Of a stretch of DNA of 64,000 nucleotides, positions 35,672-55,700 are shown one piece after another (position 1 is the first letter of the stretch; each line of letters starts with the position of its first letter). Under the pieces are notes generated by a model. The model saw only the letters and a list, made by a program, of their open reading frames with translations, did no database searches and was not told the origin of the DNA. A program made the position numbers and the translations under genes. The stretch spans positions 192,001 through 256,000 of the forward strand of contig CAVRAY010000001.1 of the NCBI GenBank assembly GCA_963719225.1, given 5' to 3'. Source of the DNA: Thermoanaerobaculia bacterium (lineage in GTDB: Bacteria > Acidobacteriota > Thermoanaerobaculia > UBA5066).

Positions 35672-35755
35672 CGAAGACTCCTTCGAAGCCGCTCCGTCAG
35701 CAGGGGTGCGGTTCACGAGGAAGTGTCGACCGGAAGGACGAGCTTTCCCCTGCCG

Positions 35756-38989: not shown

Positions 38990-39090
38990 TTGGCGTGCCT
39001 CGGGCGCCCGAGAGCGCCTTTTTGCAGTGTACATGGCACGACCTGTGCGAATCACGCCCCTGGGGGACGGATTTCCAGAAGGAGAAAATC

Positions 39091-39414
39091 ATGAATCCAA
39101 AGCCCTCTTTCCGATGGTGCGCTACCGGGGCCGCGGCTCTGGCGGCCGCTCTTCTCGGTTCGTGTGTCGTTGGGCCTCCGCCGGGCGCCGTCTACGTGCG
39201 AACGCGTCCACCCGCTGACATCGTCGAGGTCCGGGGAGTGGCTCCGGGACCCGGCCATGTCTGGATCTCGGGCTACCACGCGTGGCGCGGCGGGGTCTAC
39301 GTCTGGGTGCCCGGACACTGGGACGCTCGTCCTCATCCGCGCGCCGTGTGGGTGCGCGGAAGATGGAGACAGCATCGCAATGGCTGGTACTGGATCGAAG
39401 GGCACTGGAAGTAA
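39091..39414 (+). CDS. YXWGXW/WXXGXW-repeat small lipoprotein
   Basis: SD AAGGAG; lipobox LGSC; VWISGYH.W, YVWVPGHW, VWVRGRW, WIEGHW. Confidence 0.88.
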   Translation: MNPKPSFRWCATGAAALAAALLGSCVVGPPPGAVYVRTRPPADIVEVRGVAPGPGHVWISGYHAWRGGVYVWVPGHWDARPHPRAVWVRGRWRQHRNGWYWIEGHWK

Positions 39415-39621
39415 TCTCGCGCCATTCGGTTCGATCCCGAGCGTCTGTTCGCCGACCCTCGCTACGCGGCCTACGCCGCGGCGGGGGTCGCGTCGGTCGA
39501 ACGAGGTACCTGCGACCCGATTTCCGAGGAGCTGGAGAGAGACTCTTCGAGTGGAAGAGGGGGAGGGAGCGAACGCGAGCTCACCGCCGCGTTCGCGCTC
39601 TCGACGCAGGGGCTTTCCTCT

Positions 39622-40647
39622 TTGACGGCGCGCCTCCCGAAAACAGAGTCGCTCCCCCGCGCGCTCGGGCAATTTCTATTCGAAGAAAATCTTCTCTCCA
39701 AGGCCCGCGCGAGGCGCCTTCTCGAAACGCTCGTCGAGACGGTCCGCGCGCTGCGGGCTGCGGCTGTGGAGGTCGTCGCGCTGAAAGGCGCGGCCCTGGC
39801 GTTCTTCCATTATCCGGATCCTGCCCTCCGTCCGATGGGGGATCTCGACCTCCTGCTGCGCGACCCGCGTCAGCTCGGGCAGGCGACCGCCGTCCTCGTC
39901 GGAGGCGGCTGGATCGCTCTCTTCGACACACCGCGCCACCGCGTCTTCGCACGGCCCGGCGAGCGCGTCGCGCGGCCCGCCGCCGAGGATCCGGAGAACC
40001 CGATCCGGCTCGAGATCCACACGTCCTTTCGCCTGCCCGTGCTCGGCGGCCTCTACGACGCGAGTGCGGCGCTGCGCGCCCAGTCGGAAACACGGGATGT
40101 GGACGGCACGGCCGTCGCGATCGCGGCTGGTGCCGCGCTGGTGCCGCACCTCCTCTTCCACGCCGCCGAGGACTTCGCGGGAAACGGGATCCGGGGGATC
40201 CAGGCGTACGACTTCCGCCTCCTCGCGCGGGCGGGCGGCGCTCTCGCGCCGGAGATTTCTGCGAATGAAAGATCGGGCGGAAGTCGCCGAGGAGCCGCCC
40301 CACTGCTGTATGCGGCGGACGCGATCGAGCGTCTCTTCCCTCTTACTTTCAAAGAAGTCTTTCTTTCTTCTCTCTCCTCTAACGTCAATCCGGCCCTGCG
40401 CGCGCGCGCAGCAGCGCTGCCGGCGCTGCGTTATTCGCGCCCCGCGCGCGGCTGGACGCGGGTGCTCCTGTCGCTCGTGGAGGGTCCCGTTCCGCGCGCG
40501 CGTTTTCTCATGCGCACGCTCTTTCCGACGCTGGGCGAAGTGAAGGCGAATGCGGCACCGGACGCGACGGGGTTGGCGCTCGCCGCGGCCTGGGTGCGCG
40601 TCCTCCTCGGCCGCGCCGGCCTTCGACGCCGCCGAGGGCCGCGATGA
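39622..40647 (+). CDS. Nucleotidyltransferase family protein (NTP_transf_5-like); true start probably further upstream
   Basis: LKGAAL...YPDPALRPMGDLDLL, LEIH, HLLFH; frame open back to 39415. Confidence 0.8.
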   Translation: MTARLPKTESLPRALGQFLFEENLLSKARARRLLETLVETVRALRAAAVEVVALKGAALAFFHYPDPALRPMGDLDLLLRDPRQLGQATAVLVGGGWIALFDTPRHRVFARPGERVARPAAEDPENPIRLEIHTSFRLPVLGGLYDASAALRAQSETRDVDGTAVAIAAGAALVPHLLFHAAEDFAGNGIRGIQAYDFRLLARAGGALAPEISANERSGGSRRGAAPLLYAADAIERLFPLTFKEVFLSSLSSNVNPALRARAAALPALRYSRPARGWTRVLLSLVEGPVPRARFLMRTLFPTLGEVKANAAPDATGLALAAAWVRVLLGRAGLRRRRGPR

Positions 40648-42668
40648 AGGGGTCGGTCGGCATCGTCGCCCGCGCCGCACTCGCGGGAGCGCTCGCGATG
40701 ACGGCCTTCGGAATCGTCGAGATCTGGTTCACGGAGCTCTCCGTTTGGGCTTTTCACCGGGGCGCCTTCGCGCCGCTCGAGCGCCCCTTCGCCGCGGTGC
40801 TCTTCCTCCTCTATCCGCTCCTGGGAGCGCTGGCGGCGTCCTTCGCCGCGGCAGCCGCGGGAGCTGCGGGAGTCGCCCTCCAGGGCCGTGCGCTCGGCGC
40901 GCTCGTCGTCCTCGTCGTCCACTTCGTCTTCCGCCTTCCGGCGTACGCGGGCGGCTCCCAGGTCCTTCTTTTCGGGTTGAACGCCATCCTTTTCGGGACC
41001 TCCCTCGCGGCGACCGTGTTCCCGCGTGCGCCGCGCGCGCTCGATGTCTTCACGGGCCCCTGGACGGTCGCGCTGCTTCTCGGCGCCCCGCCCTGGGTGA
41101 TGACCGAGCTCCTCGCGGAGGCGTCCCGGCCCGTGCGTGCGCTCGGATTCGCGACGACGGTCTGCGCCGTCGCCGGGTCCGCTCTCGCGGCTGCGCGCGT
41201 CAACCCCCGTCCCCGGGTCTTCGCCGGGGCGAGCGCGGCCGCCGTGCTGGTGACGCTCGGCGCCGTCTTCGTCGCCGATTCCGGCGCTCCGCGGCAGGCC
41301 GCGGAGACGGGCGCGGCGGTCCCGCGCGGGCCGAACGTCCTTCTCGTGGTCCTCGACACCGTGCGCGCGGACCACCTCTCGCTCTACGGATATCCGCGCA
41401 AGACGATGCCGCATCTCGAGCGCTTCGCGGCGACGGCAACCGTATACACGCGGGCGATCGCGCCGTCGAACATGACGCTCGCGACGCACGCGTCTCTTTT
41501 CACGGGTCTCGCCGCGAGCGAGCACCGTGCGCATTACGACGCGGGACGCCCGGCCGGGCGGCCGCTCGGTACCTCCATGCCCACGCTCGCCGAGAACTTC
41601 GCGAAGAAGGGCTATGACGTGAGCAGCGTGGCCGGGAACTACGGCTTTCTGGGATCTGGCTTCGGCCTGGACCGCGGCTTTTCCTGGAACGATGCACGGG
41701 CACGGCGGAGCACGCTGGGGGTGATCCCCGCGGTCTCGGTCCGCGGCGCGTTCCGCCGGTTCCTTTGCCGGACGCTCGGGCTGTGGCCCGAGAGCGACAC
41801 GCGCGCCCGCGGCGCGGACGAGATCACAGATCTCGCCATCGGCCGGATCGACCGCGCGAAGACCCTCGGCAGCCCGTACTTCCTCTTCGTGAACTACTTC
41901 GACGCGCACGAACGCGTCCTCGTCCCTCCTCCGTGGGCCGGATCCTTCTCCTCGCGAGACGCGCGTCCGACTGGGCCGCTCTTCGAGGCGCGGCTCCGCG
42001 AGATGAACGCCACCGGCCGCGTCTCGATCGATTCCCGAGACCGCGAAGATCTCGTCGCCCGATACGACGAGACCCTCGCTTACCTCGACGCGTCGCTCGA
42101 CCGCCTCCTCGCGCACGCGGCCGGGTCGGACGGACAGGCGGATACGCGGATCGTCGTGACCTCGGACCACGGGGAGGCCCTGGGGGGGCATGACGCGATC
42201 GGCCACGGCTCGAGTCTCTATGACGAGCAGGTGCGTGTGCCCCTCGTCGTGCGCCAGCCCCGTCAGGCGAGCGGGCGCGTGATCGGGGAGCCCATCGGGA
42301 TCGCGGGCGTCTACGAATTCCTTTCGGGCGGATCGCCTGAAGTGCGTGTGGAGGACCCCGTCGTGTCCGAGTCCTTCCCTCTCGTCCCGACGCCCGAGAA
42401 GCCCGGCGTGCGTGGCGGTCGCGCGCTCTTCTCGGGGCCGCACGTCTATGTCCGGGGGATCGACGGGCGCGTCGAGCTCTACGACATGCGCGAGGATCCG
42501 GGCGAGTTGCGGGATCTCTCGGCCGTTCCCGACTTTCGAGGCGCCGTGGCTGGCGCATCAACCCGTCTCGACCGCTGGATTGCGGCCCATCCTCCGCAGC
42601 GCGCGCCCGAGACGCGCGAGAGCCGCGAGGACCGGGCGCGGCTTCGCGCGCTGGGATACCTGCGATGA
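40644..42668 (+). CDS. Membrane-anchored sulfatase/alkaline-phosphatase-superfamily enzyme
   Basis: Several N-terminal TM helices; PNVLLVVLDTVRAD, TLATHASLFTG, NYFDAH, YDE...LD, TSDHGE, VPLVV, ELYD..DPGE, LRALGY. Confidence 0.85.
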   Translation: MKGSVGIVARAALAGALAMTAFGIVEIWFTELSVWAFHRGAFAPLERPFAAVLFLLYPLLGALAASFAAAAAGAAGVALQGRALGALVVLVVHFVFRLPAYAGGSQVLLFGLNAILFGTSLAATVFPRAPRALDVFTGPWTVALLLGAPPWVMTELLAEASRPVRALGFATTVCAVAGSALAAARVNPRPRVFAGASAAAVLVTLGAVFVADSGAPRQAAETGAAVPRGPNVLLVVLDTVRADHLSLYGYPRKTMPHLERFAATATVYTRAIAPSNMTLATHASLFTGLAASEHRAHYDAGRPAGRPLGTSMPTLAENFAKKGYDVSSVAGNYGFLGSGFGLDRGFSWNDARARRSTLGVIPAVSVRGAFRRFLCRTLGLWPESDTRARGADEITDLAIGRIDRAKTLGSPYFLFVNYFDAHERVLVPPPWAGSFSSRDARPTGPLFEARLREMNATGRVSIDSRDREDLVARYDETLAYLDASLDRLLAHAAGSDGQADTRIVVTSDHGEALGGHDAIGHGSSLYDEQVRVPLVVRQPRQASGRVIGEPIGIAGVYEFLSGGSPEVRVEDPVVSESFPLVPTPEKPGVRGGRALFSGPHVYVRGIDGRVELYDMREDPGELRDLSAVPDFRGAVAGASTRLDRWIAAHPPQRAPETRESREDRARLRALGYLR

Positions 42669-42961
42669 CGGAGCAGCGTGTCCTCGCGCGCGGCGAGGTG
42701 CACGTGAACGAGCGCTTCGGCCCGGACGTCGTCAACCGCGGCGCGCTCCTCTACTCGTGTGAATGGGACGGCGGCGTTTTCGAGTCCGGAGTGATGTGGG
42801 GCGGTCTGTTCAGGTCGGGCCGATTTCTCGGCGGCGCGTTCTGGGGAGGATGGTGGCTCGGCGGCGCGTGGGAAGGCGGCTTCTGGCACAGCGGTTTCGG
42901 GCCTGACGGGCGCTATCTTTCGCGCGACGACGCCCCGGTTCCGCGGAGCGGAAGCGCGTGA
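42665..42961 (+). CDS. Small Gly/aromatic pentapeptide-repeat protein A
   Basis: Coupled to both neighbours (ATGA, GTGA); 9 units of [W/F/M]-x-[G/S]-G-x; paralogue at 44865-45146. Confidence 0.8.
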   Translation: MTEQRVLARGEVHVNERFGPDVVNRGALLYSCEWDGGVFESGVMWGGLFRSGRFLGGAFWGGWWLGGAWEGGFWHSGFGPDGRYLSRDDAPVPRSGSA

Positions 42962-43833
42962 CGAGTGTCCTCACCGTCTTCACGGCTTCGGCGCGGCTCG
43001 ACCTCGCGCGCCTCTGGCTGGCCTGCGTGACACGGGCCTTCCCTCGAGGCGAGGTCGTCGTCGAGATCTTCGACGACTCGAAGGACGGCGTTCTGACGCC
43101 GGGCCTTCTCCCGGACGCCGCCGTCCTTCGTCCCGGTCCCTCGCGTCGCGACTTTCAGGAGGCCTACAACGACGCGCTCCAACGCGCGTCGACTCCGTTC
43201 CTCGTCCTCCTCGACACGGACGCGTTCGCGACCTCGGCCCACGTCTGGCCGGCGGTGCGCGAGCGTTTCGCGGACGAAGGCGTCGCCGCCGTCTCGTGCG
43301 CGCCGCGAACGGCGACGCCGGGACACGACACGGTCGCCCTCGTGCTGAGGGTGTCGGCCTATCGCGCGGCGCTCGCGGACGTGCCCGGCGGCTTTCTTCC
43401 ACGCGCCGACCGGCCGGAGCCCGGCAGCCCCCCGGGGCGCTGGTCCGGCCACGACACGGGAGACCTTCTCACGCGCGCCGTCTGTGAGTCGGGGGGGAAG
43501 CACGAGGTCCTCCATCTCGAGGAGGCCGGTTCCTTCGTGCGTTTCGACGCTCTCACGAACGTGCACCTCCTCGCCATCTGGGCCGGCGCCAATCCGCTCC
43601 TTTCGCTGGTGCGGCGTGACGCCTATTTTCGGGAGGGGTGTCTCGGGAACCTCGCACTCAGGCCGATTTACGAAAGGAGGTTTCCCGAAGGGCCGCCCTT
43701 CGCGTTCGGCCTCTCCCGCGCGATGCTCTGGACGGCGCTCGCGTCCGGCGGCCTCGCCACGCTGCGCGACGGAATGAAGCGGGCACGGCGGATGCGCGCC
43801 GGCGCCCGGCGCGTCGAGGAGTTCCTGCGCTGA
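42958..43833 (+). CDS. GT-A/GT2-like glycosyltransferase A
   Basis: DLARLW, AYNDAL..A.TPFLVLLDTD (DxD), VAAVS, DTGD; paralogous to 43843-44868. Confidence 0.6.
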   Translation: MTSVLTVFTASARLDLARLWLACVTRAFPRGEVVVEIFDDSKDGVLTPGLLPDAAVLRPGPSRRDFQEAYNDALQRASTPFLVLLDTDAFATSAHVWPAVRERFADEGVAAVSCAPRTATPGHDTVALVLRVSAYRAALADVPGGFLPRADRPEPGSPPGRWSGHDTGDLLTRAVCESGGKHEVLHLEEAGSFVRFDALTNVHLLAIWAGANPLLSLVRRDAYFREGCLGNLALRPIYERRFPEGPPFAFGLSRAMLWTALASGGLATLRDGMKRARRMRAGARRVEEFLR

Positions 43834-43842
43834 AGAAAGGCG

Positions 43843-44868
43843 TCAGTCGCGGCGGCCGAAGAGGCGCCGCGCCGCGGCCCATGCGTGCGCTTCGAGGATG
43901 CGTCGCGGCGGGAGGACGCGCGGAATGCGCAGGGCGCCCGGCGTGAGCCCCTCCTGGGCGGCGAGCCGGGCGAGCGCGCGGTCGGACCTCTCGAAAGTGG
44001 CGACGAGGCGGGCGAGGAGCGTCCGGTCGCGGATCGTCGCGAACGCCGCGCGCAGCACCTCGGGAGTCGCGCTTCCCGAAAGGTGCGTGTCGCTGTACGG
44101 GGCCGAAAAGAGCGCGGGTTGACGGGCCGCCGCAAACGGCGCGCCGAAGACCTTTCGATAGAGGGATCCGAGAAGGAGATTGTCGTACGCCCCCATCGCG
44201 AAGTACGGCTTCTCGGCGAAGAGCTGGTCGAAGCGCGGTCCGAGGAGGTCGCCGAAGACCTCGCGCGAGGCGCGCACGACGGTCGTGCCGTGAAAGTCCG
44301 CGAGGCGCGAGGCGGCGACGTCGGGCGCCACCTCGACGATCACCTTGCCGCGCGCGCGCAAGGCGATCGCCGCGCGGTCCCCCGGCTGACGGTTGATCGC
44401 GTGCGGCCACCGTTCGATCCCTTCGTAGGAGGGCGCGAGGACGGGCGCCGGAAGAGCGCGGTAGGTCTCGCGCCGCGCGAGAAGCGCGAAGACGCCGGGC
44501 TGGTCGGTGCGGCGGACCAGAGAGACTCCCGCGACCGTGGGGTCCTCGAAGTGGCCGAGGAGGGAGGCGACCCAGCCCCCGTCGAGGATGAAGACGTCCG
44601 CGTCGAGAAGAAAGAGAACGTCGCACGGCCGCTCGAGCGCGAGGTCGTAGAAGGCGATGAAGTCGAGAGCCTCGAGAGAGGGCGCGAGGAGCGTCGCTCC
44701 GGGAAAGAACCTCGGCTCGAAGCCCTCGGGCGTCGTGTCGCGGAAGAGAAGGACTTCCACCTGGGCCCCGACGCGTTTCAGCGCGGGAAGGAGGTCCCGC
44801 GCTACGGACCGGAACCAGAGACGGGCGAGATCCGGATACCGGTGCGCGGAGGCGACGACGACCTTCAA
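43843..44868 (-). CDS. GT-A/GT2-like glycosyltransferase B
   Basis: TTG start overlapping upstream stop; DLARLW, FYDLAL...DVLFLLDADVF (DxD), VAGVS, PGD. Confidence 0.6.
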   Translation of the reverse strand: MKVVVASAHRYPDLARLWFRSVARDLLPALKRVGAQVEVLLFRDTTPEGFEPRFFPGATLLAPSLEALDFIAFYDLALERPCDVLFLLDADVFILDGGWVASLLGHFEDPTVAGVSLVRRTDQPGVFALLARRETYRALPAPVLAPSYEGIERWPHAINRQPGDRAAIALRARGKVIVEVAPDVAASRLADFHGTTVVRASREVFGDLLGPRFDQLFAEKPYFAMGAYDNLLLGSLYRKVFGAPFAAARQPALFSAPYSDTHLSGSATPEVLRAAFATIRDRTLLARLVATFERSDRALARLAAQEGLTPGALRIPRVLPPRRILEAHAWAAARRLFGRRD

Positions 44869-45146
44869 GGATGCACGGTGCGGGGGTGGTATTTCCCGTC
44901 GGGACCGAAGCCGTGCTCCCAGTCGCCGCCCTGCCAGTCACCGCCCAGCCACACGCCGCCCCAGAACACGCCGCCTCGAAACGTGCCGGACCGGAAGAGC
45001 CCGCCCAGCATGACGCCCGATTCGAAGACGCCCCCGTCCCACGTGCACTCGAGGAGGACGGCGCCGCGGTTCACCGTCGCGTGGCCGAACGACGTCTTGT
45101 GGTGAAACTCGCCTTCCTGGAGAACGAGAACGGGCGCGTCGGGCAT
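44865..45146 (-). CDS. Small Gly/aromatic pentapeptide-repeat protein B
   Basis: Starts 1 nt after amidohydrolase stop; shares VNRGA, C.WDGGVFESGVM.GGLFRSG, FWGG.WLGG, GFGPDG.Y with protein A. Confidence 0.8.
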   Translation of the reverse strand: MPDAPVLVLQEGEFHHKTSFGHATVNRGAVLLECTWDGGVFESGVMLGGLFRSGTFRGGVFWGGVWLGGDWQGGDWEHGFGPDGKYHPRTVHP

Positions 45147-45147
45147 G

Positions 45148-46227
45148 TCACGCGATGATACGGCGCAGGTCCGGCACGAGGCGGAAAGCCTTCTCTGCGA
45201 TCGACGCGAGCGGTGAGATCACGTGCTTCGTCACGCCTCCGACGGTGAGCGCCTCCGCGGGAATTCCCGCCGCGTCGAAAACCGCCGCATGCCTCTCGTC
45301 CGCGAGAACCGGACGCCCTTCCACGAGGACGAGCAGGACATCCCGCGGCGCGGCTTCGAGGAGCGGCGCGTCGAGGGCGACGACGTCCGCGCGCGAGCCC
45401 GGCTCGAGGGACGCGGGGGGAAGGAAGAGCCGCCGTCTCGCCGTGGCTCCGACCGCTTCCTCGAGCCGCGCGTCCTCGAGGAAGCCGAGCGCGCGCGCGG
45501 CGCGCAGCTCGTCGAGCAGGGTCCCTTCGCCGCTGACGAGGGCGTCGGTCCCGAGGAGCACGTCGATTCCCGACGTGAAGAGAGCCTGCGGCGCCGTCCT
45601 TCCGTAGAGGAAACCGTTCGAGGTCGGACACCACACGGCGGCGCAGCCGGCGGCCGAGAGCCGGACGACTCCCGCCGGGGAGGCGCCCACGAGATGGACC
45701 GCGACCAGCCGGTCCGAGAGAAGGCCGCGCCGCGCCGCCTCGTCGATCTCGGAAGCCGATCCTTCGTCGGTTCCTTCCGCTAGGTGAAGCGCCCAGGGGC
45801 CCGCGGCGGGAGGAGAGTCGGCATCTTCGAGGGCGTCGACCGCGGGGATGGGCACGACCTTGACGGGGAAGTCCCGGTCGAATTCCGCCTCCCACGGGTC
45901 GTGGTGGACGACCGAGATCGCGCCGCCGAGGATGTTCTTGAGCGCCCCGAAGAGCAACGCGTCCCGTCTGGGCAGCAGTTTCCGGCGCTCGAGATCGTGG
46001 GCGAAGCGCTCGTGGAGATCCGTCCCCCATGCGGCGGCGCTCGCATAGGGCGGCGCGCCGAGCCGCGGGAGGTGATTGCGGTGGAGGTGGTCGTGCGCAT
46101 TCACGAGCCCCGGAAGAAGAACGGCGCCTCCGAGATCGAGCGTGAGGTCGGCGGTACCGCCGGCTGCCCGGAGCCCTCCTTCGGCGACGTCCAACGTCGC
46201 GTTTTTCGCCTCGAGGCGCAACCTCAT
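45148..46227 (-). CDS. Metal-dependent amidohydrolase
   Basis: LPGLVNAHDHL, LHLAEG, VHLV, WCPTSN, LGTD; ATG overlaps upstream stop. Confidence 0.88.
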   Translation of the reverse strand: MRLRLEAKNATLDVAEGGLRAAGGTADLTLDLGGAVLLPGLVNAHDHLHRNHLPRLGAPPYASAAAWGTDLHERFAHDLERRKLLPRRDALLFGALKNILGGAISVVHHDPWEAEFDRDFPVKVVPIPAVDALEDADSPPAAGPWALHLAEGTDEGSASEIDEAARRGLLSDRLVAVHLVGASPAGVVRLSAAGCAAVWCPTSNGFLYGRTAPQALFTSGIDVLLGTDALVSGEGTLLDELRAARALGFLEDARLEEAVGATARRRLFLPPASLEPGSRADVVALDAPLLEAAPRDVLLVLVEGRPVLADERHAAVFDAAGIPAEALTVGGVTKHVISPLASIAEKAFRLVPDLRRIIA

Positions 46228-46910
46228 TTCGAGAAGCGCAACGCGAGGAGCAGCGGCAGGCCCAGGTCCGCGGCGTACCGGTCGAGCTTCTTCGCACGCT
46301 CGTAGAAGGGCCGCACCTCCACGCCCACGCCAAGCGAGCCCGCCGCGTCGAAGGTGAGCCCCGCCTCCCGCGCGGCGGCTTCGTGGGCGTCCGCGTCGTG
46401 CACGACGTGCTCGACGACGTGCGCGGCTCCGGAAGCGTCGCGAAAGGCGCGCGCGTGCCCGCGACGGATGGCGTCCGGGTGGAAGTCCGTCAGGACGGCA
46501 TATCCGCCCTTGCGAAGGACGCGCGCGAGCTCGCGGTACAGCGGCGCGATGTTCAGGAGGTGCCCGACCGCGAGCCGGCACCACACCACGTCGAAGCGCT
46601 CGGCGGCGAAAGGCAGGGCCCTGAGGTCGCCGCCGGCGGTCGTGCGCGGCCGCGCGGGATCCCGGCGTCCCGCCGCGAGCATCTCGAAGACCAGGTCCAC
46701 CCCGCAGGCGCTCTTCGGAGTCTGCCCCTTCGGGAAGACGAGCCGGCGCGCCGTGCCGCAGGCCGCGTCGAGAAGGCTCTTCCCCTGAATGTCGTGCGAG
46801 AAGAACCGGACGGCGAGCGAGTCCATCGTCGTCAGGGGGTTTTCCACGTCGTACGTCGCCGCCCACAGCCGATACGCGGACGCCGTCCCGAGCGGAGGCT
46901 CGGCGCTCAC
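46224..46910 (-). CDS. Class I SAM-dependent methyltransferase (BioC-like)
   Basis: AY.LWA.TYD, LLDAACGT, LPF....FD, ELARVLRKGG, DFHP. Confidence 0.85.
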   Translation of the reverse strand: MSAEPPLGTASAYRLWAATYDVENPLTTMDSLAVRFFSHDIQGKSLLDAACGTARRLVFPKGQTPKSACGVDLVFEMLAAGRRDPARPRTTAGGDLRALPFAAERFDVVWCRLAVGHLLNIAPLYRELARVLRKGGYAVLTDFHPDAIRRGHARAFRDASGAAHVVEHVVHDADAHEAAAREAGLTFDAAGSLGVGVEVRPFYERAKKLDRYAADLGLPLLLALRFSK

Positions 46911-48274
46911 GCGGGCGGCCTCAGGTGTCCATAGGCCTGTGAATCCGCAGGCACGAGCCCTCCCTTGAGCCGCCGCGCGAAGTCTTCCACACGATCCTTG
47001 AGAGGACGTGACAGCCACGGCACGCGCGGGTCCTCGTGCGTCATCCAGCCGACCCACTCGGGCGTCGTCCATTCCTCGAGGGTCGCGGGCGTGGTCGAGA
47101 GCGGGTCGACGTTTCCATAGGTCGCGCGGCGTTGGGGAGTCGGCGTGTAGAAATACGTGATGAGCTTCATGTCCGGATTCACGGCTGCCAGCTTCTCGAC
47201 GAACGCGAGAGTGGTCTCGACGTCCCGTCCGGGCTCGTCGGGATCGCCGAACATGAACGAGAACTCGGGAACGATGCCGAAGCGGCGGGACTTCTCCGCG
47301 AGGGCGAGCGTCTGGACGGTCGTGAGGTTCTTCGACATCTTCCTGAGAGTCTCGTCGGAGCCGGACTCGGCGCCGAAGTAGGCCATTGTGAGGCCAGAAC
47401 TCCGGAGAGCTTCCCACGTCCGGTCGGAGAATCGCAGCATCACGTCGATCCGGGCCTCGCACCACCACTTCAGCCCGAGCGGCGTCATCCTCTCGGCGAG
47501 CTCCAGGGCGCGGGACTCCTTGAGAAAGAAATTGTTGTCGTAGAAATGCACGGCGTCCATGCCGTGGCGCTTCACGAGGTACGCGAGGTTCTCCTCGATG
47601 CGCGCGGGCGACTCGAATTTCTGAAGGCTTCCGAGCGCCGCGATGACGCCGCAGAAGTTGCAGGTGTACGGGCAGCCGATCGAGGCCTGGTAAACCCCGT
47701 TTCGTTTCCCGAAAGCAGTCGGCTGGAGGTAGTCGTCGACGTCGATCCGGGTCCACGGCAGGGCCGGGAACGCGTCCGGGCCTTCCCAGGCGCGCTCCGG
47801 GTTGAGCCGCGCCTCGCCTCTCTCCTTCCAGCCGAGGCCCTGGACGGCGGCGGGGTCGAGACGTCCCGCCAGGACATCGAGCAGCTCGACGAGCGTGCGC
47901 TCGCCCTGGCCGCGCACGAGGAAGTCGACGTAAGACGCGCGCAGCACGGGGGCGGGGTAGAGACTCGGGAAATAGCCGCCCCAGACGATCGGGAGCATCG
48001 GGAAGCGCTCCTTGAGCCGTCGCGCGAGCGGCGCGGCCGAGACGAGCTGCGGCCCCGGCATGACGGTCATCGCGACGAGCGACACGGGATCGTCCGTGAG
48101 CGCGCGCATCCCGACGCAGGTCGCGACCGCCGCCTCGAGGTCGGAGTCCGGCGGGTTGCCGTCGAGGATCTCCCACGAGACGCCGGAAGGCAGAGCGGCG
48201 CCGAGCGTGAGGAGAGAGAGCGGGAAGCGCCGGTTTTTCGGGCGCGTGGCGCGGGGGTTGAGGAGGAGGATCAC
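46907..48274 (-). CDS. B12-binding radical SAM enzyme
   Basis: N-terminal cobalamin domain (PLSL..L, IVWGG.FP, VRGQGE); CPYTCNFC; FYDNNF; FGAESGS. Confidence 0.9.
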   Translation of the reverse strand: MILLLNPRATRPKNRRFPLSLLTLGAALPSGVSWEILDGNPPDSDLEAAVATCVGMRALTDDPVSLVAMTVMPGPQLVSAAPLARRLKERFPMLPIVWGGYFPSLYPAPVLRASYVDFLVRGQGERTLVELLDVLAGRLDPAAVQGLGWKERGEARLNPERAWEGPDAFPALPWTRIDVDDYLQPTAFGKRNGVYQASIGCPYTCNFCGVIAALGSLQKFESPARIEENLAYLVKRHGMDAVHFYDNNFFLKESRALELAERMTPLGLKWWCEARIDVMLRFSDRTWEALRSSGLTMAYFGAESGSDETLRKMSKNLTTVQTLALAEKSRRFGIVPEFSFMFGDPDEPGRDVETTLAFVEKLAAVNPDMKLITYFYTPTPQRRATYGNVDPLSTTPATLEEWTTPEWVGWMTHEDPRVPWLSRPLKDRVEDFARRLKGGLVPADSQAYGHLRPPA

Positions 48275-48281
48275 GCGCGCC

Positions 48282-49091
48282 TCACGCTCTCCGCGCCACC
48301 CACAGGTCGAAGCGCGAGGGCTCCCGCCTTCCGAGGAGACGGGCCCTGAATCCCCGGGTTTCGTAGGCGAGCGGATAGCGGACGCGGCTCTTCTCGAACG
48401 ACAGCCCTGCGGGCGCGGCGGCGCGAACGAGGATTTCCGGCGTGAGGTATTCGACCGGCTGAAGCGCGAGAAGATCCGCCGCGAGGTCGCGAAAGATCCG
48501 CTCCGTGTCGCGCTTCTTCTCCTCGGCCATGGCCTCCCCCGACGCGGACCGCGCGTAGAAAGGAGAATCGAGTATAGCCACGCGTCCGCCCGGGACGGAG
48601 GCGCGCGCGGCCTCCCCCAGAACGCTTCCGAGATCCTCGGCGAGGTGCAGAGATGCGTCGAAGACCACGAGGTCGAAGACCGCGTCGGGGAAGGGAAGCG
48701 CGTCGAAGGACCCGGAGACGCGGCCGAACATGCGCGGCAGATGCCGCCGGAACGCCGCGCCCGCGGCGAGACCATCGACGTCGTCGATCCGCAGGTCGAC
48801 GGCGACGCACCGGTGCCCGTCGCGGCCGAGGCGCGCGCACAGCCAGCCGTTTCCCGCGCCGAGGTCGAGAACCGCGAGCGCGCGGCCGCGCTCCTTCGCG
48901 AGCGGCGCGACGACGCGGCTCCTCAAGGCCTCGAACGTGCGGGCACGAACCGCCCACTGGTCGGCGAGGGGGCCCGCGGTCACGTACGGCAACGCGAGGA
49001 GCTCGGCTTCTCCCCCCGCGCCACGGCCTTCCGTGCGCCTCAGTTGCGCGTAGGCGCGGGCCCACCGTCGCCGGGAAGATTCGGCGTTCAT
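48282..49091 (-). CDS. Class I SAM-dependent methyltransferase
   Basis: VLDLGAGNGW, AVD, LPFPDAVFDLV, SLH, PGG..ILDSPFY. Confidence 0.85.
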   Translation of the reverse strand: MNAESSRRRWARAYAQLRRTEGRGAGGEAELLALPYVTAGPLADQWAVRARTFEALRSRVVAPLAKERGRALAVLDLGAGNGWLCARLGRDGHRCVAVDLRIDDVDGLAAGAAFRRHLPRMFGRVSGSFDALPFPDAVFDLVVFDASLHLAEDLGSVLGEAARASVPGGRVAILDSPFYARSASGEAMAEEKKRDTERIFRDLAADLLALQPVEYLTPEILVRAAAPAGLSFEKSRVRYPLAYETRGFRARLLGRREPSRFDLWVARRA

Positions 49092-49906
49092 GCGGGAACC
49101 GCCGTCCTTTCGAAGTCGCAAAGCACGTGGTCGCCGAGCAGCGCCAGCGGCCGCGCCGCCAGGCGGTCGAGGCGCTCGAGCGCGCCGAGGAGGCGCGGGA
49201 AGCGCGACGCGGCGGGCTCTGCCGAGCTCGGCGGCACGAAGATCCCGATGCCGAGCGTCCTCCGGAGGCGGAACCACGGCGCGAAGGAGGAGGCGAGCGT
49301 CCGCGGCGAGGGATAGGTCACGGTGAACGTTTCGCCTCCCACGCGCGCCGGCGCGGGGGAACCTACAAACCTCCGGAACGCCGCGCGCGCCCTGCCCCGC
49401 GCCAGGAGGACGAGGACCTCGCCGGGGCAGCTCGGGCCGAAGAGGACGAGAAGGGCGCGCCGTCCCGTGGGAAGGAGGCGCGCAAGGCCGCGGGCGACGG
49501 AACCATGGTCCGCCACGCAGTTCAAAGACGCGAAGTTCGAGAACGCGCCGTCGAAGATCGTGCCGCTGCGCGCAGCCGCCCACGTATCGAGCTCCTCGAG
49601 CGAAACGCGCTCCGACGTGACGCGTTCGCCGAGAGCCGCAGCGCGGGCTTTCTCCGCGGCGCGTCCCACCATCGCGGGCGCTCCATCCGTGACGAGAACG
49701 CGGCGTCCACGCTCGGCGAGGAAGATCGCGTCCTCGCCGGTGCCGCCTCCGAGCTCGATCAGCGTGGCGCCCACCGGAAAGGCCTCGAGAAGCGCGCCCC
49801 GCACCGCGCGACGCTGGGCCGCGACGCTCCTCCACCCCGAGAACCGCTCGTCGAACGAGGGAGCGAGGGCGTCGAAGGCGCGGACCGCCGGGGAGAGATG
49901 ATGCAT
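49088..49906 (-). CDS. Class I SAM-dependent methyltransferase (alternative GTG start at 49936)
   Basis: AFD.LA..FD, LIELGGGTGEDA, TD...M, FDGAFSNF. Confidence 0.85.
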   Translation of the reverse strand: MHHLSPAVRAFDALAPSFDERFSGWRSVAAQRRAVRGALLEAFPVGATLIELGGGTGEDAIFLAERGRRVLVTDGAPAMVGRAAEKARAAALGERVTSERVSLEELDTWAAARSGTIFDGAFSNFASLNCVADHGSVARGLARLLPTGRRALLVLFGPSCPGEVLVLLARGRARAAFRRFVGSPAPARVGGETFTVTYPSPRTLASSFAPWFRLRRTLGIGIFVPPSSAEPAASRFPRLLGALERLDRLAARPLALLGDHVLCDFERTAVPA

Positions 49907-49940
49907 CGGCTCTGAAGTGACGTCCCCGAAGCTCACGCGT

Positions 49941-51422
49941 TCATACGCGCATGAGATCGATGGGAGTCGGATCGGCGGGAGGGCGGGGCGGGGCGGCGCG
50001 GAATCCGGCTTCGATCGCGTCGAGCATGCTCCACCGCTCGTCCAGGGCCTTTGCGCCGTTCTGCCCCTCGTCACCCGGCGACGTGTAGGCGGTGACCTCC
50101 GCGTGCAGAAGGTCGCGAACGTGCCGGTAGAAAGACTCCTCGTACGTTCCCTTGAACATCATCGCGAGGTCGTCGCTGTCGCGCCAGTTCGAGCGCGGGC
50201 CGAGCTGTCCCTTGACCGTCTCGTAGAATTTCGTGCCGGGAAGCGGATACGACACCGAGACGCCGATGTCGTCCGGCCGCTCCTCGAGGACGAGCGCGCG
50301 CGTCGCGACGAGGTCCTCCCACGTCTCGCCCGGATAGCCGAGCTGGAGGAACCACGCGGGGCGGATTCCGTGGCTGCGGAGGAGGCGCGTCGCCGTGCGC
50401 ACCTGTTGGATACGCGTGCCCTTTTCCATCGCGTCGAGGATGTTCTGCGCGCCCGACTCGACGCCCATCCACACTTCCTCGGCCCCCGCGCGCGCGAGGG
50501 CGGCGACGGCCGAGGGCGTCATGAGGTCCACGCGCGACTGCATCATGAACGGCACGCGGACGCCTTCCTGCGCGAGGGCTTCGGCATACGACTCGATCCA
50601 CCGCGGCGTCAGGCCGAAGATATCGTCCGCGAACCAGAGGTGGTCGGGATGGACGTTCTCGGCGAGCAGGCGCACTTCACGGGCGACGTTCGCGGGGCTG
50701 CGCTGGGCGTAGCGGGTGCCGTAGAGCGGCTTCGCGCACCAGTTGCAGTGAAAGGGGCACCCGCGCGTCGTCACGACGTTCCACGAAAGGCGGCCATGGG
50801 CGTTTTTCCAGGCCGTGCGGTACGCGTCGGCGTCCGCGAGGTCCCAGGCGGGAAAGGGAAGCGCGTCGAGGTTCTCGACGAAGGGCCGGATTCGGGTTCT
50901 CTTCGGCGCGGTGTCGGCCGAGCTCCCGGGGAGCGCGAGTCCGGGGATGCCCTCGAGCACCGCCCTGGGATCGGCCGTCCACGCCTCCGCGAGCTCGGCG
51001 AACGTGACCTCCGGCTCGCCGAGGATCACGGCATCCGCTCCGGCGGCGAGGTAGGACGTCGCATGGTCCGTCGCGTCCGACCCGTTCACGGCGACCAGGC
51101 GCGAGCGCGCGTGGGCCGCGGCCACCATCGCCAGGGCCGCCTCGCGGTTTCGCGTCGTGCACATTTTCGTCAGGAAGTTGAAGTTGTCCTCGAGGATCCC
51201 GACGATCGAGGCGTCCGAAGTATCGAGGGCGCGCACGAACTCGGCCTCGCTTCCAGCGAGCATCGCGTCGAAGAGCTCGACGTCGAATCCGCGCTCGCGC
51301 AGAACCGAAGCGACGAGGAGAGTCGCGAGGGGCGGATACGGTTTCATCTTCCGCCACTGCTTCGCGTCGTTTGCGAGGTAGTAGGAGTGCGCGAGGAGAA
51401 CCTTCGGCCGGGCTCCGCACAT
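49941..51422 (-). CDS. B12-binding radical SAM enzyme (BchE/HpnP-like superfamily)
   Basis: PYPPLATL, GSDATD, ILGEPE, LPFPAWDL, RGCPFHCNWC, FADDIF, MGVESG, GYPGET, YPLPGT. Confidence 0.92.
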   Translation of the reverse strand: MCGARPKVLLAHSYYLANDAKQWRKMKPYPPLATLLVASVLRERGFDVELFDAMLAGSEAEFVRALDTSDASIVGILEDNFNFLTKMCTTRNREAALAMVAAAHARSRLVAVNGSDATDHATSYLAAGADAVILGEPEVTFAELAEAWTADPRAVLEGIPGLALPGSSADTAPKRTRIRPFVENLDALPFPAWDLADADAYRTAWKNAHGRLSWNVVTTRGCPFHCNWCAKPLYGTRYAQRSPANVAREVRLLAENVHPDHLWFADDIFGLTPRWIESYAEALAQEGVRVPFMMQSRVDLMTPSAVAALARAGAEEVWMGVESGAQNILDAMEKGTRIQQVRTATRLLRSHGIRPAWFLQLGYPGETWEDLVATRALVLEERPDDIGVSVSYPLPGTKFYETVKGQLGPRSNWRDSDDLAMMFKGTYEESFYRHVRDLLHAEVTAYTSPGDEGQNGAKALDERWSMLDAIEAGFRAAPPRPPADPTPIDLMRV

Positions 51423-51480
51423 CGCCCGCGAGCCTAATTCAGTCGTTTTGAAAAAAGTGTGACGTGGATTGCCAATTCGG

Positions 51481-52503
51481 TTACGTGACGAGACTTTTCA
51501 ACAAAGCGACGGCGCCCTCGAGGTCGGAGGCGCCGTCCAGCCGCATCCCGCCCGCGCCGGCCCAGGCGCGCGCGACGGCGCCGGATCCACCGTCGACGCT
51601 TTCCTGGGGAATCTCGCCTTTCGTGAACTCCTCGACGAACTCCGGACCCGCGAGCTGGACGAGACGCGCTGGTCCGGGAACGCGCGGTCCGAGGAGCAGC
51701 GTCGAAACGCGTCGGGCCGCGCGCGCTTCGGGACGCGAGGCCGCGAAGAGATCGATGCGGCGCTTCACCTCGCCGCCCGAGAACCCGGCCTCGGTGCCCG
51801 ACTGGAGGCCCAGAAGAGCCGCGCTGTCCTCGCGCAGCGTCAGCTCGCGGACCGAGGAGGCGAGCTCGTCCGGATCGGCGCGCGAGACGAGCACGCTCTC
51901 GTCTCCGAGCACGCCGAGCCCGGCGGCGTGCGCGGCGGCCACGAGCGTGGACTTTCCGGCGTCCGAGGCCCCGCGCACCACGACGGCGCCCTTCGGACCC
52001 GTGACGGCGCCCGCGTGCAGCGCGCGCCAGCCGCGGCGCGCGAGCAGGATCGCGGCGGGGGCCTCGAGGAGCGTGCGGGCGAGGAAAGAACGAAGAGAAG
52101 AAGAGGAAGATTTCTTAGAAAGGGGAAGATAAGAAAGAAGAGAAGCCGCGATGCGCGCGTCGACGCGCGCTCGCTCGAGATTGATCGTGACTTCCAGGGC
52201 GCCGGGGACCGCGCAGCGAAATTCCGACGCCTCGTGCACCCACTGCAGTCTTTCTTCGAGTGAAAGAATGGGGTCGGCGTCGCGGCGCGGCGAGCTGGGA
52301 GCCGCCACACCGCCCTTTTTCGCGCCTTCCAAGAAATCTTCGTCTTCGTCCCGCGTAACCTCGATCGCGATCGCCGCGCGCGCATGGCCCGTGGGCGCCG
52401 GCGCCCAGAGCTTCTCCGCCAGCTCGAAGAGGAGCGGCTCTTTCGACGTGAGCGCCACGACATCTCCGGGCGGCCCAAAGAGCCGTGTCGTTCCGTCCGC
52501 CAT
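51481..52503 (-). CDS. HprK-related P-loop kinase
   Basis: LHAGAV, GASDAGKSTL (Walker A), LGDES; contains low-complexity inserts. Confidence 0.75.
   Translation of the reverse strand: MADGTTRLFGPPGDVVALTSKEPLLFELAEKLWAPAPTGHARAAIAIEVTRDEDEDFLEGAKKGGVAAPSSPRRDADPILSLEERLQWVHEASEFRCAVPGALEVTINLERARVDARIAASLLSYLPLSKKSSSSSLRSFLARTLLEAPAAILLARRGWRALHAGAVTGPKGAVVVRGASDAGKSTLVAAAHAAGLGVLGDESVLVSRADPDELASSVRELTLREDSAALLGLQSGTEAGFSGGEVKRRIDLFAASRPEARAARRVSTLLLGPRVPGPARLVQLAGPEFVEEFTKGEIPQESVDGGSGAVARAWAGAGGMRLDGASDLEGAVALLKSLVT
52106..52126 (+). repeat. 21-nt motif GAAGATTTCTTAGAAAGGGGA (exact copy at 57053-57073)
   Basis: Direct sequence comparison; inverted related copy at 52325-52341. Confidence 0.8.
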
Positions 52504-52730
52504 GTGCCGCAGCTTGCCACGGAGAGCCCGACGACTCCGGAAGTCCGGCTCAGGGCGGCCATGGGCCGTTCTGCCGGGAAGGCGTAACCTTTCACGATTC
52601 CGTGCGTCATACCGGGATGCTCTCGGCCCCCGGCTGCGTGCGGGCCTTTTCGAGCGCCGTCCTGGCCCTGGAGTTGCTCGGGAGAGAAGGAACCGTGTGT
52701 CCTCGGTCAATTCGGCGTGGAGGTTCTCCG

Positions 52731-55700
52731 ATGAGTCAGCTTCGAGATCGTCGTTCCGGCGCTCGCGGGTGGAACCGCGGCCTCTCCCTGGTGCCGCTTC
52801 TCGTGCTCGCTCTCCTGGCCGGCGGTGCACGTGCCGGGGAGATCCGCGGGCGGCTTCTCGTCAACGATCGCGCGGACAGGCCCGCGGGCGGCCTCACGGT
52901 CAGCGCCGTTCCCTGGGAGACGCCGGGCGAAGAAGCGCGCCGCGCCATGAAAGGAGGCGACCCCCCGAAGCCGATCGCGTCGACCGTCACCGGAGCCGAC
53001 GGCTCCTTCGTCCTGGCCGTTCCCAGCGATCCCGCGGCTGAAAAGACGTTTCGCGTGAGAGTCGAGGGCCCGGGCGTCGTGCCCGTTCTCTTCGAGGACG
53101 TCTACGACGCGTCCGAGACCGGAGATCTCGGCGAGCACACGCTGCCGCACGGCGAGAAGCTCACGGGCATCGCGGTGGACACGTCCGGGAACCCGCTCGC
53201 GGGAGCGGAAGTCTCCCTCGAGGCGGGGGTTGCGGGCGGCGACGACCTCGCCTTCCGGGTCGTGACGCGGAAGGTCGTGACGAAAGAGGACGGGAGGTTC
53301 CAGTTCGAAGAAGCGAGCGCGCTGGGCAACCAGATCACGATCGAGAAGGCGGGCCTCGCGCCCGCGCTCCAGACCGGCCTCAAATCAGGCGCGATTCCGA
53401 GGCCCATCGCGGTCGTCGCGGGCGACCCGGTCACCGGCGTCGTCCTCGGCGCCGGCCGGAAACCCGTGGGAGGCGCCCTCGTGCGGCTGGAGAGCGTCAA
53501 GGCGATGACGCGCTGGGTCGAGACGGATCCCGAGGGACGCTTCACGATCCCGCACGCGCCCGACGGCCGCGGCGCGATCGTCGTGGACGCCGGCGACGGC
53601 GGCTGGGGACGCAAGCCCGACGTCAAGCTCCCTCTCGGCGAGGGCCGATCGCTCGTAATCACCCTCGCTCTGCCGGCCTCGCTCGACGGCAAGGTCGTCG
53701 ACGACAAGTCGGGGCGCATCGTGCCGCGCGCGAAGGTCCTGGCGAAGGCGAACGGCTTCGCGCGCCTCGTGCGCACGGGCCCGGACGGGACGTACCACCT
53801 GAAGGGCATCCCGCCGCAGACCTATCGCCTCACCGTCGACGAGCCACGATACGTGCCGTGGGCGAGGCCGGATCTCGCGCTCGCGCCCGGCGAGGCGAAG
53901 CGCCTCGACATCGCCGTGACGCTCGGAGCCTCGCTCGCCGGGAGGGTCGTGGACGAGAACGGCGCCCCCGTGGCGAGCGCGCGCGGAACCCTCATGCGCG
54001 GAGGCGAGAACGCCCTCCAGGGCATCCGCCGGATGATGCGCGCCGGAGGAGAGGTCACCGCCTTCCGCACGCGCTCCGACGGGACGTTCCGGGCCGCGCG
54101 CCTCGCCCCCGGCGACAACCAGCGCCTCTTCGTGAGCCATGCGGACTTCGAGCGCGCGACGCTCGCCGGACTGTCCCTGCCCTCCGGCGGCACGAAGGGC
54201 GACGTGGCCGTCGTGATGCGCCGGGGCGCCACGATCTCGGGCATCGTGAAGGACACGAGCGACCAGCCGGTCGCGGACGTCGAGGTGCAGGTCGATCCAT
54301 CCGTGAGCTTTCGCGCTGGAGCGGGCGGCATGGTCGCGAACTTCGCGCGCCTCGGCGGCCCGAGCACGCGCCCCAGGACGAAGACAACCGCCGACGGCAG
54401 GTTCCGGATCAAGGGCATGGCCGTGGGCGAGTACGCGCTCCAGATCAGCAAGCCGGGGTTCGCGAGCGAGCGCGTCGACCCCGTGAAGGTGACGGAGAAA
54501 GGCGCCGATCCCGTCGCGGTGACCCTCGGGCCGGGAGCGAGCATTTCGGGGATCGTGCGCCGGAAGAGCGGGGAAGGGGCCGAGGGCTTCTTCGTGCGCG
54601 TCGGCGCCGGCGGCCGCGGGGCGGCCGGTGGAGGCGGTCCGCTCGCCGGAACCGGCACGCCGCTCCCGACCGGCGCGGACGGAACGTTCGTCCTCGACGG
54701 CCTGAAACCGGGTCACGTTTACGACCTCTCCGTCTTCGGCGGGGCAGGCATCGGTCCGCAGAAGCGCGGCGTCGTGGCGCCGGCCTCGAACGTCGACATC
54801 CTGGTTTCCGGCACCGGGCGGATTTCAGGCACCGCGCTCGACGCGCGCTCAGGCCAGCCCCTCAAGAGCTTCTCGGTTTCCTTCGAGCCCGACCGCGGCG
54901 GCGGCACGGTCATCCGTCTCGTTGCCCGCGGCGCGGGTGCCCGTACCGGCATCGGCCAGAAGCGCAATTTCAACACCGACGATGGCGCGTTCACGCTCGA
55001 GGACGTGCCCGCTGGAACCTGGACGGTCGTCGTCGAGGCGAAGGGCTATCTCGAGGCGCGCGTCGCGAACCTCGTGGTCGAGGAGAGTGGCTCCAAGGAC
55101 GGCGTCGAGATTCGCGCGACCCCCGGAGTCGTCCTCAAGGGACGGGTCTCGGACGCGCGCACCGGCCGGCCCGTCGCGAACGCGAGCATCACGCACGAGC
55201 CGGCCGGGGGCGGCGGGCCGGGCGGCTTCGGAGGCCGTATGACCGTGCTCGCGGGGCTCGACGGCGGCGACGACATCACGAGCGACGCGGAAGGCAACTT
55301 CGAGATCGAGGGAATCTCCGTCGGGCGCCTCAAGGTCACCGCGAAGAGCCCGGACTACACGGACGGCAGCGAGGTGGCGGACGTCAAGGAGACCGGCGGC
55401 ACCGTCGAGATCAAGCTCACGACGGGCGGATCGGCGGGCGGCGTCGTCGTGGCCGGCAGCCAGCCGCTCGCGAACGCCCAGGTCTCCCTCGCGGTCGCGG
55501 GCGACGCGGGCTTCGGCCGCATCCTCGGGGGCGGGCAGACCACCACGACGGACGCGACGGGCCGCTTCCGGTTCGACCACCTCGGGGCCGGCCGCTACAG
55601 CGTCTCGGCGGGGACGAGCGGAAAGTCGAGCAACCTCTCGGAGTTCGTCCTGCAGGCGGGCGACTCGAAGAACGACCTCGTGCTGTCGCTCACCTCGGGC

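Follow-up and report, generated by a model that had tools for sequence, protein, structure and literature searches.

A 64,000-nt stretch (hereafter the window) of contig CAVRAY010000001.1 from a Thermoanaerobaculia bacterium (assembly GCA_963719225.1, positions 192,001 to 256,000) carries at 39415-52503 a 13-gene locus, which we interpret, at a probability of roughly 55%, as a composite locus for the tailoring of a glycan, in which the glycosyltransferases (GTs) have an undescribed beta-helix accessory domain. The locus consists of a widespread core, encoding radical S-adenosylmethionine enzymes (rSAMs), methyltransferases (MTs), a deaminase-like amidohydrolase, a kinase and a nucleotidyltransferase (NTase), together with two copies of a unit formed by a small repeat protein and a GT (the small+GT unit). 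The two modules are distributed separately, and the small proteins are coupled, in some relatives by fusion, to their GTs. The likely task of the locus is to make or modify a methylated glycan of the cell surface, and the small proteins, modelled as beta-helices, likely are accessory subunits of the GTs, not precursors of a modified product; the chemistry of the cluster is, throughout, what we infer.

Distribution of the two modules

A sample of 301 genomes of the phylum was screened for the core, scored by rSAM1, one of its two radical enzymes, at E<=1e-80. The core was present in 38 genomes, 33 of which had no small protein, and the small protein and the GT were found in the same six of the 301 genomes. 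The small gene was detected in two of the 19 phylum core loci, which came from the 19 highest-scoring of the 38 genomes, and in one of 80 metagenome core loci, the other 79 lacking it. In turn, 17 of the 42 full-length small-protein loci contained no rSAM. Thirty genomes with such rSAM-less loci, among them kin that are not independent and with completeness not given, were searched for rSAM1 at E<=1e-60: none of the 22 genomes of a Terriglobia/Bryobacterales-type small+GT clade was positive, and outside that clade two were negative and six positive. Two loci from close, same-genus-like relatives (L053 and L059) retained at the same genomic position only the third methyltransferase (with or without the amidohydrolase), the small gene and GT B, and rSAM1 was not found in either genome. 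The locus counts come from six-frame scans with hidden Markov models built from the same loci, used because simple gene calling was poor in some lower-GC loci; a few of the loci have identical scores and duplicate one another.

Layout of the locus

Thirteen open reading frames (ORFs) were confirmed, arranged as the original prediction had described them, in two convergent operons whose plus and minus arms meet tail to tail at 43833/43843, 9 nt apart. Its observation that most junctions overlap or are less than 10 nt apart holds for 10 of the 12 (seven overlaps of 4 nt and gaps of 1, 7 and 9 nt), the remaining two being gaps of 34 and 58 nt. The G+C content at third codon positions ranged from 0.77 to 0.91 across the cluster genes, which are the following:

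39424..40647, plus strand: NTase, NTP_transf_5 (PF14907, above the Pfam cut-off), MGDLD motif; probable ATT start at 39424
40644..42668, plus strand: sulfatase/alkaline-phosphatase-fold protein (Sulfatase above the Pfam cut-off), membrane-anchored, about six hydrophobic segments; an optional part
42665..42961, plus strand: small protein A, 98 aa, [F/W/M]xxGx pentapeptide repeat; relatives fused to GT A
42958..43833, plus strand: GT A, predicted GT-A (GT2-like) fold, invariant D86-x-D88
43843..44868, minus strand: GT B, paralogue of GT A (hhalign probability 99.96), D89-A-D91
44865..45146, minus strand: small protein B, 93 aa, predicted right-handed beta-helix (pLDDT 95.7)
45148..46227, minus strand: amidohydrolase, TRZ/ATZ-type (deaminase/chlorohydrolase), invariant H45, H47, H148, E151, H178 and D228
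46224..46910, minus strand: MT3, class I S-adenosylmethionine methyltransferase (above the Pfam cut-off), usually adjoining the amidohydrolase
46907..48274, minus strand: rSAM2, B12-binding and radical SAM domains (above the Pfam cut-off), C201-C205-C208
48282..49091, minus strand: MT2, class I S-adenosylmethionine methyltransferase (above the Pfam cut-off)
49088..49906, minus strand: MT1, class I S-adenosylmethionine methyltransferase (above the Pfam cut-off), alternative GTG start at 49936
49941..51422, minus strand: rSAM1, B12-binding and radical SAM domains (above the Pfam cut-off), C222-C226-C229, invariant K86-M87-C88
51481..52503, minus strand: HprK-related P-loop kinase, GASDAGKST (TIGR04352 below its cut-off)

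The amidohydrolase and GT A scored below the Pfam cut-offs, and the Pfam scan gave no match for GT B, the HprK-like kinase or either small protein; every NCBIfam model tried on the cluster proteins remained under its cut-off. No extra copies of the small proteins or GTs were found elsewhere in the genome, and a promoter and terminator scan returned signals no better than those of shuffled sequence. Named relatives assign the host to Acidobacteriota, Thermoanaerobaculia.

The small proteins and their glycosyltransferases

GT A and GT B share 37% identity over 146 aa. The GT A model has a GT-A fold (pLDDT 89.7) and matched GT2 enzymes, with a Foldseek E of 1e-8 to PcManGT (6yv7) and a VIA alignment of Z 16.9, rmsd 2.9 and 178 aligned residues; the DxD motif is invariant in the GT A alignment. 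For GT B the GT-A fold is predicted through its profile homology to GT A, plus the DxD. Against the Pfam GT2 model (PF00535, cut-off 23.3), GT A reached 16.9 bits and GT B gave no match. The cluster GTs resemble PcManGT, WrtF, SpsA and TarS/TarP in their predicted fold and conserved DxD, but identity is at most 20%, the helical C-terminal part is distinct, and a beta-helix partner is tightly linked to them.

Coupling was examined in 70 genome loci collected with the small-protein alignment, which contain 81 small-protein matches. A GT-like gene begins at most 350 nt 3' of the small protein in 78 of these; the other three comprise a match at a contig end, a match fused behind its GT and a match with no GT in its vicinity. 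Among 80 reading frames holding the small domain, 17 also hold the GT domain, in the orders small-GT (n = 11), NTase-small-GT (n = 3), GT-small (n = 2) and small-GT-small (n = 1), and the same fusions were seen in seven independent library proteins (P0056, P0058, P0059, P0064, P0067, P0074 and P0077). An individual fusion could result from a sequencing error at a 4-nt overlap, yet both orders exist with linkers. Those fused GTs that were placed in a tree, built as a quick version only, fell in its GT A clade. One additional frame joins the small domain to the amidohydrolase, in a frameshift-rich assembly. Separately, a frame of more than 1,000 aa in locus L085 (small protein at about 9990-10260) holds sulfatase, small and GT domains together, a single case that could reflect misassembly.

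Identity between small proteins A and B is 65%, and each carries nine [F/W/M]xxGx units in a row, whereas no more than three followed one another in any of 10,000 shuffles. Alignments of 55 small-protein sequences showed that the aromatic and Gly phases are almost fixed, and that the repeat region (entropy 0.8-0.9 bits) is more conserved than residues 6-33 (1.2-1.3 bits). Precursors of RiPPs (peptides made on the ribosome and modified after translation) of the proteusin type have a conserved leader and a variable core; because the repeat region is here the more conserved part, the small proteins show no leader-core pattern.

An AlphaFold2 (AF2) model of small protein B was all-beta (pLDDT 95.7, pTM 0.85), and the small proteins are predicted to be right-handed beta-helices. 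Foldseek found no match to the small-protein model at E<=0.001. In VIA-align, low rmsd values were obtained with right-handed beta-helices alone (rmsd 2.3-3.5, Z 6.3-7.6), among which bactofilin, TibA and Rfr proteins were tied: bactofilin 6ria (Z 7.6, rmsd 2.3, 77 aligned), BacA 2n3d (Z 7.3, rmsd 2.9, 84 aligned), TibA 4q1q (Z 7.3, rmsd 3.0, 88 aligned) and pentapeptide proteins (Z about 6.3). Left-handed hexapeptide proteins reached Z values up to 8.1 but with rmsd near 10.5. For this model, such Z values indicate architecture, not family or function.

The small proteins resemble PF00805 pentapeptide proteins and bactofilins in a five-residue period and a predicted right-handed beta-helix, and differ from PF00805 in the repeat itself, [F/W/M]xxGx, for which the Pfam scan returned neither PF00805 nor any other family. 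A pentapeptide-repeat protein, CipG, binds and scaffolds GlgC, a GT-A-like sugar-nucleotide enzyme (PMC13506006). The feature similarity of the small protein to PF00805 and the Rfr fold in the Atlas was weak (0.82-0.83).

The nearest and the distant sequence relatives of the small proteins are long WxxGx/FxxGx repeat proteins, some with the same C-terminal GxDxxGxYH cap. Longer WxxGx repeats with a similar cap also occur in library proteins P0069, P0073, P0093 and P0176 and in viral contigs L201-L205; in P0176 they are fused to an M23 peptidase, and L203 has five such repeat ORFs. The Atlas look-alike of the small protein is a mostly viral cluster (score 0.89, a lead only), which hinted at an origin in phage DNA modification. 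This origin was unsupported: small protein B had no match in annotated phages, the GT B profile found none in the viral contigs, and a PHROGs scan returned nothing for the GTs or small proteins of the window. Near the repeat look-alikes of five viral loci, neither a GT nor any other family match was detected.

Enzymes of the core

Both rSAMs carry, with invariant cysteines, the B12-binding and CxxxCxxC radical SAM domains of class B (cobalamin-domain) enzymes. The best solved match of rSAM1 was AprD4 (E 2e-30), and AprD4, OxsB and QCMT were the nearest solved enzymes across the two rSAMs. HpnJ and BchE were the top NCBIfam matches, far under their cut-offs (the best, BchE, scored 105 against 481), and none of the equivalog cut-offs of BchE, HpnJ, HpnR, PhpK, ApyD or rSAM_ocin_1 was reached. 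All 8,000 scored rSAM1 candidates fell at E<=1e-50, and no rSAM1 relative was found in plasmids at E<=1e-30. As a side observation, the K-M-C triplet of rSAM1 (residues 86-88, window 51159-51167), in the B12-binding domain, was invariant in 24 of 24 aligned sequences and is a possible metal or cofactor ligand.

GenK, GenD1 and MoeK5 methylate carbon centres, HpnJ and BchE are not methylases, and for HpnJ the contraction of a sugar ring has been proposed (PMC9204698). The cluster rSAMs share the B12-binding and CxxxCxxC radical SAM domains with GenK and GenD1 (gentamicin), MoeK5 (moenomycin), HpnJ and the non-cobalamin AprD4; unlike GenK, GenD1, MoeK5 and HpnJ, they occur as one to five paralogues per locus, in glycan-type neighbourhoods of uncultured bacteria, and not in an antibiotic or hopanoid cluster.

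The amidohydrolase keeps the HxH, HxxE, H and D metal and catalytic residues of TRZ/ATZ-type deaminases, and its top PDB matches included the MTA/SAH deaminase 4f0r and TM0936, but also 8-oxoguanine deaminase and AtzA. A 5'-deoxyadenosine deaminase exists in M. jannaschii (PMC6302742).

Formylglycine sulfatases carry a C/S-x-P-x-R motif. The sulfatase-fold protein lacks it (residues 274-288 are PSNMTLATHASLFTG) and has Thr278 at that position, a possible nucleophile by analogy.

No ATG, GTG or TTG is available for the NTase at 39415, and the first canonical start is the TTG at 39622. The conserved N-terminus (IRFDPERLF..PRY) begins three codons past the in-frame stop of the upstream gene, and since it is conserved from 39424, the NTase probably starts there at an AUU codon, or else the stop is read through. 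The Ile codon at this start is ATT in nine of 10 close relatives, including the window, and ATC in one; ATT makes up 19 of the 165 Ile codons of 15 window genes. Three more distant NTase relatives have an ATG two codons before the Ile. A second, unannotated NTase family of Pol-beta type (c19, GS..N..DxD, e.g. L038:6442-7473) adjoins rSAM1 in core loci without the PF14907 NTase. Because hhalign found no alignment between the two families (probability 1.6), they are treated as alternative, not orthologous.

Genes that accompany the core

Neighbours were tallied in the 19 phylum core loci and in the 29 of the 80 metagenome core loci that were at least 9 kb long, the 51 shorter ones being left out. 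Core loci carried one to five B12-domain rSAMs. Methyltransferases were found in 16 phylum and 25 metagenome loci, the amidohydrolase in 11 and three, an HprK-type kinase in five and eight, an NTase of either family (PF14907 or Pol-beta type) in 11 and 12, and an extra non-B12 rSAM with weak SPASM/twitch-family matches in eight and 11, respectively. The recurring neighbour families were GT4, GT9, GT2, Wzy_C, Polysacc_synt, sulfotransferases and PIG-L; GT4 or GT9 was present in 11 of the 19 phylum loci, and 16 of the 29 metagenome loci adjoined a GT2, GT4, GT9, GT87, PMT, Wzy, Wzx, priming-GT or GT-like gene, a tally taken without a background rate.

The convergent layout was followed in 13 loci with a close NTase: all core matches lay on the opposite strand in nine, and the other four had a single core match (n = 1), mixed strands (n = 1) or no core matches (n = 2). 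Close relatives keep the convergent NTase/core arrangement with varying inserts (GT4, GT9, sulfatase or flavin-reductase-like genes).

Genes flanking the locus

A WXXGXW-repeat protein with a lipoprotein-like signal and a weak BcpO match (39091-39414) lies directly 5' of the NTase here and in several relatives, and has five more tblastn matches in the genome. On the minus strand, 32828-39055 encodes two large secreted-looking proteins (962 and 1099 aa) without a Pfam match, the nearer of which adjoins the arm with the NTase across about 15 loci, perhaps as a target for glycosylation, perhaps through conserved synteny only. At the other side, a protein of about 1,400 aa with many CarboxypepD_reg repeats (52485-57014) diverges from the HprK-like gene, a position kept in close relatives.

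Proposed pathway and the evidence that weighs against it

If the locus tailors a glycan, the HprK-like kinase would phosphorylate a hydroxyl, and the NTase would activate that sugar-phosphate to a nucleoside diphosphate (NDP) donor, or cap it, by analogy with PsmK and PsmN. The B12-domain rSAMs may C-methylate or rearrange the sugar, the three MTs may add O- or N-methyls, and GT A and GT B would transfer sugars in the cytoplasm, with the aromatic, Gly-rich beta-helix as a scaffold or binding module that holds either the GT or the glycan accepting the sugar. The deaminase-like enzyme could clear S-adenosylhomocysteine (SAH) or 5'-deoxyadenosine, or act on a nucleotide intermediate, and the membrane sulfatase-fold protein would be an optional phosphoester transferase or hydrolase outside the membrane. 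A bolder version is less likely and is put forward tentatively: the [F/W]xxGx beta-helix would be a partner subunit of a new class, required by an undescribed family of GT-A enzymes, and, with the kinase, the NTase and several cobalamin rSAMs, would form an assembly line whose product is a surface glycan, C-methylated and phospho-linked, that is common in uncultured soil bacteria, the output of the NTase being throttled by its AUU start.

Several observations weigh against the glycan interpretation. Five of the six small-bearing phylum genomes also carry rSAM1, and two loci (L035 and L075) have the small gene between an rSAM and an MT gene without an adjoining GT, which together indicate that some link of the small protein to the core exists. 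The fold Z-scores of the small protein, at most 8.1, are in a common range. Thirteen of the 29 metagenome core loci had no glycan gene among the families scanned. By Pfam, a flippase, a polymerase and a priming GT are absent from the 13 genes, and occur beside the core in some relatives; the host genome has five Wzy_C matches elsewhere and no PF01943. The small+GT units of the stand-alone clade sit mostly among unrelated genes, with Wzx, Wzz or Wzy neighbours in two of 21 loci (56 of 120 called neighbours scanned). Finally, AprD4 does not bind cobalamin and neither do AprD4-like proteins (PMC12931638), which means that B12 use and methylation by the cluster rSAMs are not guaranteed.

Alternative explanations

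The core might make a small molecule or a glycolipid (a nucleoside or aminosugar with methyl groups, or a lipid head group with an HpnJ-like modification) that the GTs then glycosylate, which we regard as unlikely but as the alternative that survives best. The nearest solved rSAMs (AprD4, OxsB and QCMT) and the resemblance of the parts to nucleoside and aminosugar pathways point in this direction, as do the heterocycle-deaminase family enzyme, the extra non-B12 rSAM of the core loci, the HpnJ and BchE matches, low as they are, and the core loci without glycan genes. However, Wzy, Wzx, priming GT and GT87 genes recur beside the core, and the neighbours scanned include no conserved exporter or scaffold-forming enzyme.

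Less probable still is that the small beta-helix serves its own GT as protein acceptor, as TibA does for TibC, with the core, where present, methylating the attached sugar. The one-to-one coupling and the self-sufficient two-gene unit would suit such a pair, and glycosylated TibA (4q1q) is among the low-rmsd matches. The small proteins have a median of nine to 10 Ser+Thr, with T24, S43 and S53 often retained, but the locus-derived alignment contains no invariant Ser, Thr or Asn, and no hydrophobic export segment was found. TibC, which heptosylates serines of TibA, has a GT-B-like catalytic core and acts on a secreted passenger (PMC4358343), in contrast to the predicted GT-A fold here, and fusion to the GT at either end and within NTase-small-GT frames suits a domain better than a substrate.

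That the arms or modules lie side by side for historical reasons and belong to separate pathways appears improbable. Each module is found without the other, and L053 and L059 keep only their short gene set in genomes where rSAM1 was not found; yet translational coupling runs through rSAM2, MT3, the amidohydrolase, small protein B and GT B, both modules appear together, in several different gene orders, in various Acidobacteriota lineages, and there are NTase-small-GT fusions.

The proposal, one half of the original prediction, that the small proteins are RiPP precursors, hypermethylated, phosphorylated and glycosylated in polytheonamide-like or lasso-tailoring fashion, is very unlikely and is largely refuted by the distribution, with the core mostly lacking a small protein and the small protein occurring without rSAM1, and it also meets a lack of leader/core contrast, a confidently predicted fold and fusion to GTs in either order. 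What favours it is that the small proteins are Gly-rich, of about 95 aa, encoded among modifying enzymes, and in two loci lie inside an rSAM-MT run. The locus shares with the polytheonamide (PoyB/PoyC) proteusin pathway two cobalamin rSAMs adjoining a Gly-rich small ORF, but that ORF is here a predicted folded GT accessory without leader-core structure, and the core mostly occurs without it. In pseudomycoidin, PsmK phosphorylates and PsmN is needed for the subsequent addition of hexose (PMC6993621), and the cluster likewise has an HprK-family kinase and an NTase of an uncharacterised family with a DxD motif; in contrast to psm, the locus has dedicated GT-A enzymes and no precursor, and the lasso B1/RRE and B2 domains were not found in the host genome (97% complete; searched as PqqD, PF05402, and Transglut_core3, PF13471). 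No lasso cyclase is present among the 13 cluster genes, a genome-wide search not having been made, and none of 1,645 small intergenic ORFs was common to at least three of 48 core loci.

Relation to known systems and significance

The other half of the original prediction, in which the small proteins are structural partners in making a methylated, glycosylated surface polymer, fits the evidence. Of the observations that the original prediction named as refuting it, one was made, in that the core does usually occur without the small proteins, whereas the core maps to no pathway named in NCBIfam. The parts have known folds, and neither their combination nor the beta-helix-GT unit matches a curated family. 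No description of this system was found in the literature searched (most subscription journals lying outside it), and within that literature and the libraries searched the system stands as undescribed.

The result eliminates a spurious RiPP lead. As a group, rSAM1 proteins are very numerous and often receive the automatic annotation BchE, an assignment that the score does not support. The small+GT unit is compact, about 1.3 kb, without membrane segments, and would define a beta-helix accessory domain that has no Pfam model together with a GT family missed by profiles. If the glycan interpretation is true, radical chemistry on surface glycans would extend the sugar chemistry of cobalamin rSAMs beyond antibiotics and hopanoids.

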